Below are positions 26,182 to 26,863 of a DNA stretch of 30,163 bases, one piece after another. Within the stretch, counting starts at the first letter, position 1, and every line of letters begins with the position of its first letter. The DNA is from a virus (lineage: Duplodnaviria; Heunggongvirae; Uroviricota; Caudoviricetes): the IMG/VR virus record IMGVR_UViG_2850796239_000002. One strand, 5' to 3'. The translations under genes were made by a program, and so were the position numbers. The notes below the pieces were generated by a model. It did not search any database and was not told the DNA's origin. It saw nothing but the letters and a program-made list of their open reading frames with translations.

Positions 26182-26643
26182 CTAGTTTAAACCTTCCATA
26201 TACTTATCAAGTTCCTCACAATACGTTCCATCTTTATAAACTCCCACACTCAAAAAATTAGTTAGCTTTATAACCCCATCAATTTTTTCAAAATCAAAAA
26301 AATAACCAAATGCCCCCTGATCATCACACATCTTTCTGATTTTCTCCGGTAGCCTTACAGTTACTATTTGCACACATTCTTTATTATCAGGGTATCTCAT
26401 TATAGAGATCACTTCAGAAGAATGAGTTCTGGCAGAATTTTTTTTACGATAAACAACCTCTGTTGATAATTTAATGATATCTTCGTTTTCTTCCAAAATA
26501 GAAAAGACATTATTTTTCAATTTATTCAGTGAAGTATCTTCTATATACTGAAATCCGTTGTTTGTAATTCCATGCACAATGCTCTCAGCCTCATTCTTCT
26601 GTATACACTGCTTAGCAAAAACAAAAGAATTTAAGTTAATCAA
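26182..26643 (-). CDS. Hypothetical AT-rich protein (153 aa); probable secreted protein whose signal peptide (start near 26671) is cut off by a frameshift in an A7/T7 run at 26650..26656
   Basis: Removing one T from the T7 run gives MKIFIFFALLINLNSFVFA-KQCIQ..., a canonical signal peptide fused in frame to the ORF. Confidence 0.4.
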   Translation of the reverse strand: MINLNSFVFAKQCIQKNEAESIVHGITNNGFQYIEDTSLNKLKNNVFSILEENEDIIKLSTEVVYRKKNSARTHSSEVISIMRYPDNKECVQIVTVRLPEKIRKMCDDQGAFGYFFDFEKIDGVIKLTNFLSVGVYKDGTYCEELDKYMEGLN

Positions 26644-26863
26644 TAAAGCAAAAAAATATAAATATTTTCATACAATTCCTTTTATCTATGCTTAGTATCC
26701 TCTTTCGATACCATTTCAGCACCTAATGCTTCCCTTACTTCATCAATGCTCTCAAACTGAGCAACCATATCCCCCCTTTCTTAAACGCAGCCTCACCGCG
26801 TTCTTTATATTGAATAGGAATATAATACCCTTCAAATATTACCCCGTACAGGGTGCGCAGGGT

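Follow-up and report, generated by a model that had tools for sequence, protein, structure and literature searches.

In the window, by which is meant the whole stretch of 30,163 nucleotides analysed here, a small gene on the minus strand lies beside vgrG sequence of a T6SS cluster with its ATG in one reading frame and most of its coding region in another. The locus raises the question of what this gene encodes, how it came to stand alone, and whether its frameshift is real. Based on frame arithmetic, homologues in other genomes and the DNA that surrounds it, the gene is likely to be the decayed immunity half of a vgrG-linked effector–immunity module in an E. coli/Shigella-type T6SS cluster.

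As written, the gene reads as an 11-codon stub from the ATG and a 153-aa ORF from a TTG at 26643. Read from the ATG (26671..26669, minus strand), the frame runs ATG AAA ATA TTT ATA TTT TTT TGC TTT ATT GAT TAA and gives MKIFIFFCFID*, whereas the 153-aa ORF (26182..26643, minus strand) is read in a different frame. The T7 run in the signal-peptide region is one T longer than an in-frame T6 and two shorter than an in-frame T9. Deletion of one T fuses the two frames into a 162-aa product (MKIFIFFALLINLNSFVFAKQC...), and addition of one base gives no fusion; frame arithmetic thus confirms the claim of the earlier note that one nucleotide fewer in this run (A7 on the plus strand) would join an upstream ATG to the TTG-initiated ORF. 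The repaired protein begins MKIFIFFALLINLNSFVFA-KQC, a Sec-type signal peptide with the n-region MK, the hydrophobic core IFIFFALLINLNSF and V-F-A followed by KQC, for which cleavage is predicted after VFA and before KQC. The signal peptide was called by hydrophobicity heuristics and by conservation in relatives. The maximum Kyte–Doolittle value, KD(10), is 2.78 for the repaired N-terminus against 1.40 for the TTG ORF; together with the conservation of the leader in all full-length relatives and an intact allele of the same gene (P0022, see below), this core supports the signal peptide that had been proposed for the fused product.

The Shine-Dalgarno-like AAGGA (read 26681..26677) serves the ATG and not the TTG, which has no Shine-Dalgarno sequence and whose product retains only 10 residues of the leader. 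The TTG-started 153-aa protein was considered as a functional product and rejected, since it is without a ribosome-binding site and has an N-terminus of only 10 weakly hydrophobic residues; even if made, it would probably remain cytoplasmic, away from a peptidoglycan-acting effector. The 153-aa ORF is not a product of chance, because 153 open codons are very unlikely to arise randomly at 30% G+C (the value for the gene, against 51% for the window) and because homologues exist. A promoter and terminator scan around the gene gave nothing above shuffled expectation, with no promoter-like site above chance between the gene and the IS element that separates it from upstream transcription. Where a protective orphan immunity gene should be intact, the T7 run here splits the ATG and the signal peptide from the mature domain.

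Table 1. Features of the locus and of the remainder of the window (positions are those of the window)
Feature	Position	Strand	Basis
Frameshifted gene, orphan immunity-type, for a putatively exported mature protein of ~143 aa	26182..26671	-	sequence, frame arithmetic, homologues, family alignment
T7 homopolymer in signal-peptide coding region (A7 on + strand)	26650..26656	-	sequence
Predicted signal-peptide coding segment, 19 codons + extra T	26614..26671	-	hydrophobicity heuristic, conservation in relatives
Shine-Dalgarno-like AAGGA, 5 nt upstream of ATG	26677..26681	-	read from sequence
A8 run inside gene (T8 on + strand)	26438..26445	-	DNA copies, protein P0003
Second T7 run, codons Y-F-F	26296..26302	-	DNA copies; P0001, P0023, P0025, P0029, P0033, P0034, P0036
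Effector 3' stub, last ~52 codons + stop TAA (26684..26682)	26682..26840	-	tblastn with L012 and L018 effectors
G6 run in effector stub	26771..26776	-	comparison of DNA copies
vgrG 5' remnant, distal piece, to deletion junction with stub	26841..26863	-	sequence comparison
IS4-family element in vgrG remnant, 1,301 bp, transposase ORF 26889..28112	26864..28164	-	NF033591, E 1.8e-108
vgrG 5' remnant, proximal piece (MNIPALNFDHSHHKLKIRGLQSPVDVL...), itself frameshifted	28165..28406	-	sequence comparison
Downstream full-length vgrG in three ORFs (105, 193, 495 aa)	23505..26018	-	Phage_GPD, Phage_base_V, T6SS_Vgr, DUF2345
Two unannotated cargo genes (262, 308 aa); also after this vgrG in E. coli	21725..23512	-	comparison
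Two unannotated cargo genes (296, 205 aa) of the preceding vgrG module	28454..29951	-	comparison
Tail sheath	11995-13470	-	Mu-like module
DNA-circulation protein	8027-9301	-	Mu-like module
Baseplate GpP-like	6957-8027	-	Mu-like module
Tail-fibre N-terminus	1884-2858	-	Mu-like module
DUF4376	957-1577	-	Mu-like module
Mu Gp36	16052-16489	-	Mu-like module

Relatives of the gene and their effector neighbours

Among 1.84 billion representatives, HMMER found only 13 proteins at E <= 0.001 when run exhaustively, and a profile search returned 13 clusters; a profile scan of genome contigs gave nothing with a two-sequence alignment and four loci with a nine-sequence alignment. Full-length members of the family are 162–171 aa long, and all of them (P0004–P0010, P0012, P0015–P0017 and the ORFs of L022, L024 and L025) carry a signal peptide followed by a Cys 2–5 residues past the predicted cleavage site, the leader of each being N-terminal, hydrophobic and closed by a small residue. 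A 54% identical homologue, P0004, starts with the complete signal peptide MKIFTLLVVLLFTSFPSAFA-QQC. Invariant in the family alignment are Cys 22, 99, 115 and 151 (numbering of the repaired protein) and the motif CDDxGxxGY, in its longer form MCDDxGxxGYF. The pattern of a leader and four Cys would fit an exported, disulfide-bonded protein; a lipoprotein reading was rejected, since no lipobox precedes the conserved Cys in the family sequences. Pfam and NCBIfam gave nothing meaningful for the repaired protein and for all nine family members, and PDB sequences gave no match. A single-sequence AlphaFold model (pLDDT 39.6) was discarded in favour of an alignment-based model, the fold of which is possibly weakly NTF2-like; its Foldseek comparison with the PDB gave no significant match, with no known immunity structure among the fold matches listed.

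The gene for P0004 (L001:1151-1650, from Logan ERR5914369, and L002) lies outside a T6SS context, with a SymE-toxin gene on one side and mog on the other. This mog is 77% identical to that of E. coli, and the locus is probably from another enterobacterial genus; only about 35 nt upstream of the family gene resembles an effector 3' end.

In the relatives with a T6SS context, the family gene lies directly 3' of an effector with LysM and TIGR02594/NlpC-P60-like domains, co-oriented with it and separated from it by a gap of about 20–60 nt (L009–L013 from Salmonella and Logan, L018/L019, L022, L024 and L025). These loci are vgrG-linked, and vgrG is found upstream in every locus long enough to show that region. 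In Salmonella enterica (L009–L011) and a Logan contig (L012), a T6SS cluster of the order tssF-tssE-tssC-tssB / hcp-vgrG holds the homologue, which begins 24 nt past a 652-aa effector (L012:8019-9977). This effector matches LysM (E 4.6e-14) and, in its C-terminal part at residues 474-587, TIGR02594 (E 3.5e-19; 69.4 bits, just under the curated cutoff of 70.55), and its CHAP match of 23.1 bits is sub-threshold (cutoff 26). The candidate catalytic motifs AWCASF and GHVNLV can be read from its sequence, and a phmmer search of its C-terminal domain against PDB sequences returned nothing. More distantly, P0012 (about 26% identity) begins 21 nt after a 570-aa LysM + CHAP protein (L018; CHAP E <= 1e-5), and the family gene likewise starts shortly after the end of an effector in Escherichia sp. 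MOD1-EC7003 (L022), Enterobacteriaceae bacterium G50 (L023), Erwinia endophytica (L024) and Klebsiella michiganensis DSM 25444 (L025). In L025 the effector is encoded at 4100-5938 and the family gene at about 5995-6516. When a gene for a small exported protein immediately follows that of a peptidoglycan effector, the arrangement is the canonical signature of cognate immunity, as in pairs of the Tae-Tai type. In one of the Salmonella loci (L009:7858-9977; protein named for serovar Vietnam), the effector is broken into four ORFs (270, 105, 123 and 204 aa) beside an intact family gene, which NCBI names 'sugar ABC transporter permease', an evident misannotation.

The copies that stand beside an intact effector are themselves intact (L012, L018, L024 and L025), whereas orphaned relatives are damaged: L001/L002 miss one G in a G-run, and L023, beside a truncated effector, has a TGG->TAG change and a frameshift. 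Intact beside the effector and damaged when orphaned is the pattern expected under relaxed selection, and the decay of the other orphaned copies fits such a relaxation once the effector is gone.

On the basis of synteny, export signal and size, the family protein would act as the immunity partner of these effectors. Another exported partner, such as an accessory protein or chaperone or a second periplasmic toxin, or a hitch-hiker unrelated to T6SS, is an unlikely identity for it. Such a reading could draw on the lack of homology to known immunity families, on the P0004 copy outside any T6SS context, on a related Salmonella LysM effector that was reported to be paired with an LprI-domain immunity protein (PMC8867033), and on other small candidate immunity genes at some loci (DUF4431 upstream, DUF3828 downstream). 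For an effector with two candidate enzymatic regions, however, two immunity genes per module are expected. To our knowledge, T6SS adaptors and chaperones are cytoplasmic and lack signal peptides, whereas this family always has one. A small protein with predicted periplasmic targeting, encoded just after the effector, matches the canonical pattern of immunity to peptidoglycan effectors, and the family gene persists beside remnants that keep only the C-terminal TIGR02594 part (L020, L023 and the window), which ties it to the TIGR02594 domain. The modest new elements of this analysis are a rare, unannotated and undescribed family of immunity type that is paired with LysM–TIGR02594 effectors, a well-preserved deletion scar and a notable polymorphism of homopolymers.

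The deletion scar and the surrounding cluster

In the window, the place of the effector is taken by a stub of its 3' end, which closes 10 nt upstream of the ATG and whose parent was probably of the LysM–TIGR02594/NlpC-P60 type of T6SS effector. The last 49 residues of the Salmonella-type effector, GFYVPVSYYFHAKEIIQNGGDLTPVFDNIGSLRESLGANKPSEKDGKTR, align with the translation of the DNA upstream of the S. boydii gene, GYYIPIQYKERGEAAFKKGGDMVAQFESIDEVREALGAEMVSKEDTKHR, at 37–39% identity over 49 aa in tblastn (E 3e-8 to 3e-9 on the G7 copy L004 and ~5e-4 on the window), and both finish at the stop codon in front of the family gene. The window stub lies 3' of the region that TIGR02594 matches (residues 474-587). 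A G-run inside it is out of frame in the window (G6), in frame in L004–L006 and L015–L016 (G7), and G8 in L003 and L017. The G6 of the window differs from the G7 of short-read contigs with an identical gene allele, and it may be a real variant or an assembly homopolymer error.

Upstream of the stub lies a vgrG 5' remnant that shares 92% identity, across 239 nt, with the beginning of the downstream vgrG. At the junction, ...LRTLYGV / IFEGYYIP..., the vgrG frame of G7 alleles continues straight into the effector stub. Fused as it is to the effector stub, the vgrG 5' remnant records a deletion that brought a point about 260 nt into vgrG next to the final ~52 codons of the effector. Within the 30-kb window seen, the effector is therefore missing and the immunity-type gene is retained. 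The earlier note had read the gene as that of a periplasmic orphan immunity protein, which the effector pairing of the relatives and this ~52-codon stub support at the level of sequence; its placement of the gene between two vgrG loci stands in so far as vgrG sequence lies on either side, but the upstream one is a truncated, IS-interrupted remnant with an effector stub, and the downstream one is full-length but frameshifted.

The IS4-family element that splits the remnant is flanked by the near-perfect 9-bp repeats CCCCTGCGC / ACCCTGCGC. A second copy of the element at 18925..20226 of the window has a perfect 9-bp target duplication, CCCTCAGGG, and a transposase broken into two ORFs (18977-19600 and 19603-20199). 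The insertion into the upstream vgrG remnant lies ~235 nt in (28164/26864 of the window), and in the complete chromosome CP119446.1 the same IS lies ~235 nt into the downstream full-length vgrG (L003:6892-8194); this shared position could mark a hot spot of insertion, or else the two vgrG 5' repeats may have undergone gene conversion.

In comparison with annotated E. coli, the locus falls within the variable array of vgrG cargo that an E. coli-type T6SS cluster carries between tssH and tssM. The downstream vgrG is colinear with an intact E. coli vgrG at about 97% identity, and with this gene in three pieces and with IS insertions, the T6SS cluster of the genome is degenerating. The 296-aa and 205-aa cargo genes are followed in E. 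coli by an intact vgrG. None of the four cargo genes (262, 308, 296 and 205 aa) has a Pfam or NCBIfam match, and in E. coli they are only hypothetical; the pairs are likely to be uncharacterised effector/immunity or adaptor pairs. Elsewhere, the tail module of a Mu-like prophage occupies the minus strand at positions 1..16500 of the window and is broken up by an IS3-family element (rve integrase ORF 13971-14789), and an IS66-family transposase at 16828..18428 appears as overlapping ORFs of 320 aa and 232 aa and is therefore probably frameshifted.

A probable course of events can be proposed from these observations. In the ancestral module, vgrG would have been followed by an effector with an N-terminal domain, LysM and a C-terminal TIGR02594/NlpC-P60-like domain, which would cleave peptidoglycan in the periplasm of the target cell. 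About 10–60 nt past the effector stop, a Sec-exported protein of ~163 aa, probably disulfide-bonded through the four conserved Cys, would have been encoded, and this protein would inhibit the effector by binding it in the periplasm. A deletion would then have joined vgrG codon ~87 to the remaining effector codons, whereby the toxin was lost and the immunity gene orphaned. An IS insertion would later have divided the vgrG remnant and separated the gene from its upstream operon, and a length change in the signal-region T-run, now T7, would have put the ATG out of frame. Because the TTG product has neither a ribosome-binding site nor a usable signal peptide, it could presumably not reach the periplasm, and the function of this allele is probably lost. 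Neutral decay after toxin loss, in AT-rich and slippage-prone sequence, is the main reading of this course. The kind of locus is a familiar one, in which an orphan T6SS immunity gene undergoes ordinary decay while the T6SS of its Shigella-type genome is being dismantled.

Homopolymer alleles and the reality of the frameshift

The T7 run is present in 8/8 DNA copies, which are the window and seven fetched copies, namely L003 (CP119446.1, a complete S. boydii chromosome), L004 and L017 (NCBI draft contigs), and L005, L006, L015 and L016 (Logan short-read contigs). Of these, L015 and L016, reported for 5 and 3 samples, carry the allele of the window, which they match at all other variable sites (codon 3 ATA, A8 and the 3' T7). 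In a large protein database, the gene comes almost exclusively from Shigella boydii, and megablast with the region of the gene as query found no match in 5,426 complete E. coli genomes. The exact 153-aa TTG product is present in the protein collection, and the repaired 162-aa sequence is absent from it. The T7 run in all copies, short-read contigs with an identical allele included, leads to the rejection of a sequencing error and makes the frameshift a real allele. The length of the run is thus verified, yet the orthologues do have a signal peptide; only one of the two findings that would jointly have spoken against the earlier note was made, and its reading of the gene therefore stands.

In-frame 5' alleles can be inferred from proteins, as T9 in P0022 and T6 in P0023 and, with an Ala->Ser change, P0025/P0026. 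P0022 (163 aa, MKTFIFFFALLINLNSFVFAKQC...) is the same gene, intact from end to end, with the signal peptide MKTFIFFFALLINLNSFVFA-KQC. It is the only intact allele, and most 5'-in-frame alleles are broken at the 3' tract (P0023, P0025, P0026 and P0033). Given these in-frame 5' alleles elsewhere, the word 'dead' applies to the allele of the window and not to the gene in the population. The A-run inside the gene is A9 in L004–L006, which makes a second frameshift, and only A8 or A9 is found in DNA. The 3' T-run is, by DNA, either T7 or a 28-nt tract (TTA + T25, in L003 and L017) and, by proteins, T6 to T9 with longer poly-Phe forms in addition. The 28-nt tract appears as an in-frame poly-Phe insertion in P0001 and P0036 and out of frame in P0029, P0033 and P0037, and its length would imply high instability. 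Three homopolymers in one gene of 490 bp therefore vary between strains.

This variation could also be read as that of a phase-variable orphan immunity gene, in which slipped-strand mispairing or transcriptional slippage changes the tract and T7 is a reversible OFF state. The tract lies in the 5' coding region, the remainder of the window ORF is still open, in-frame and out-of-frame lengths coexist in close strains (T7 by DNA; T6 and T9 inferred from proteins P0023, P0025 and P0022), and the two further homopolymers vary as well. A run of T7 is, however, short for efficient slippage in Enterobacteriaceae. The breakage of most 5'-in-frame alleles at the 3' tract looks like cumulative decay and not like a switch, the orphan relative L023 carries a lesion that did not arise by slippage (TGG->TAG), and the surrounding T6SS cluster is itself degraded, with vgrG in three pieces and IS insertions. 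Phase variation is accordingly rather improbable. The fuller version, a contingency switch made of the T-run and the two other homopolymers that is ON at T6/T9 and OFF at T7, possibly with a low-level rescue of T7 by transcriptional slippage, is less probable again; if true, Shigella/E. coli populations would have a phase-variable defence against the LysM–TIGR02594 T6SS effector of their neighbours.

Homopolymer miscalls are common in long-read assemblies, and the G6 of the stub suggests that the window assembly may hold some, but the alternative that the earlier note had allowed, in which the strain truly has T6 (or T9) and an intact gene, is hardly credible in view of T7 in all eight copies from independent NCBI and Logan assemblies, of the two short-read contigs that match the window elsewhere, and of the 153-aa product present in the collection where the corrected one is absent. 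Genuine inactivation in a slippage-prone tract, the other possibility that it had named, is supported by the T7 run of every DNA copy. As for annotation, the 153-aa TTG-start 'hypothetical protein' of many S. boydii records should be a pseudogene.

Comparison with known systems

Neither the sequence searches of Pfam, NCBIfam and the PDB nor the fold matches that Foldseek listed relate the family to characterised immunity proteins of the Tai, Tsi or Rap families, and the comparison with immunity families that the earlier note had proposed likewise gave no match to any characterised immunity protein. In arrangement, however, the family resembles the Tae-Tai pairs (Tse1-Tsi1, Tae4-Tai4 and Ssp1-Rap1a), in which a small Sec-exported protein is encoded beside a papain-like (NlpC/P60/CHAP) T6SS cell-wall effector and is presumed to bind it stoichiometrically in the periplasm.

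The immunity arrays of Vibrio cholerae have been described as containing orphan immunity genes that stayed behind when their effectors were displaced (PMC5361080), and a putative immunity islet has been described in Salmonella Typhi (PMC7400221). As in those cases, an immunity-type gene is kept here in the vgrG cargo region with a 3' piece of the old effector attached. Unlike them, the locus of the window derives from a simple vgrG–effector deletion without replacement by a new module, and the orphan is decaying in a T6SS that is being dismantled by IS elements and frameshifts. The clean scar, which joins the 5' end of vgrG in frame to the 3' end of the effector, records one way in which an orphan immunity gene originates and is then lost.

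The Salmonella SPI-19 pair SED_RS06235/SED_RS06230 (PMC8867033) is like the Salmonella-type loci L009–L012 in that tssF-tssE-tssC-tssB / hcp-vgrG is followed by a LysM effector. By domain description, SED_RS06235, with a transglycosylase-like region and LysM, is similar to what the 652-aa effector has in its N-terminal half; as described, it has 290 aa and is without the C-terminal TIGR02594, and its immunity protein carries an LprI domain, whereas the family presented here is without a Pfam domain.

In Stenotrophomonas, proteins with LysM and TIGR02594 encoded after vgrG have been described as peptidoglycan-targeting T6SS effectors (PMC13055248), and V5 of S. rhizophila, annotated as of the TIGR02594 family, was reported among the most potent lytic effectors (PMC13340143). 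These effectors share with the putative lost partner of the S. boydii gene the order of LysM and C-terminal TIGR02594 after vgrG. Compared by gene order, the presumed immunity gene of S. maltophilia is described as being between vgrG4 and the effector (PMC13055248), whereas here it lies after the effector. The family is thus a concrete immunity candidate for an effector class that has been reported as a potent lytic weapon in Stenotrophomonas.
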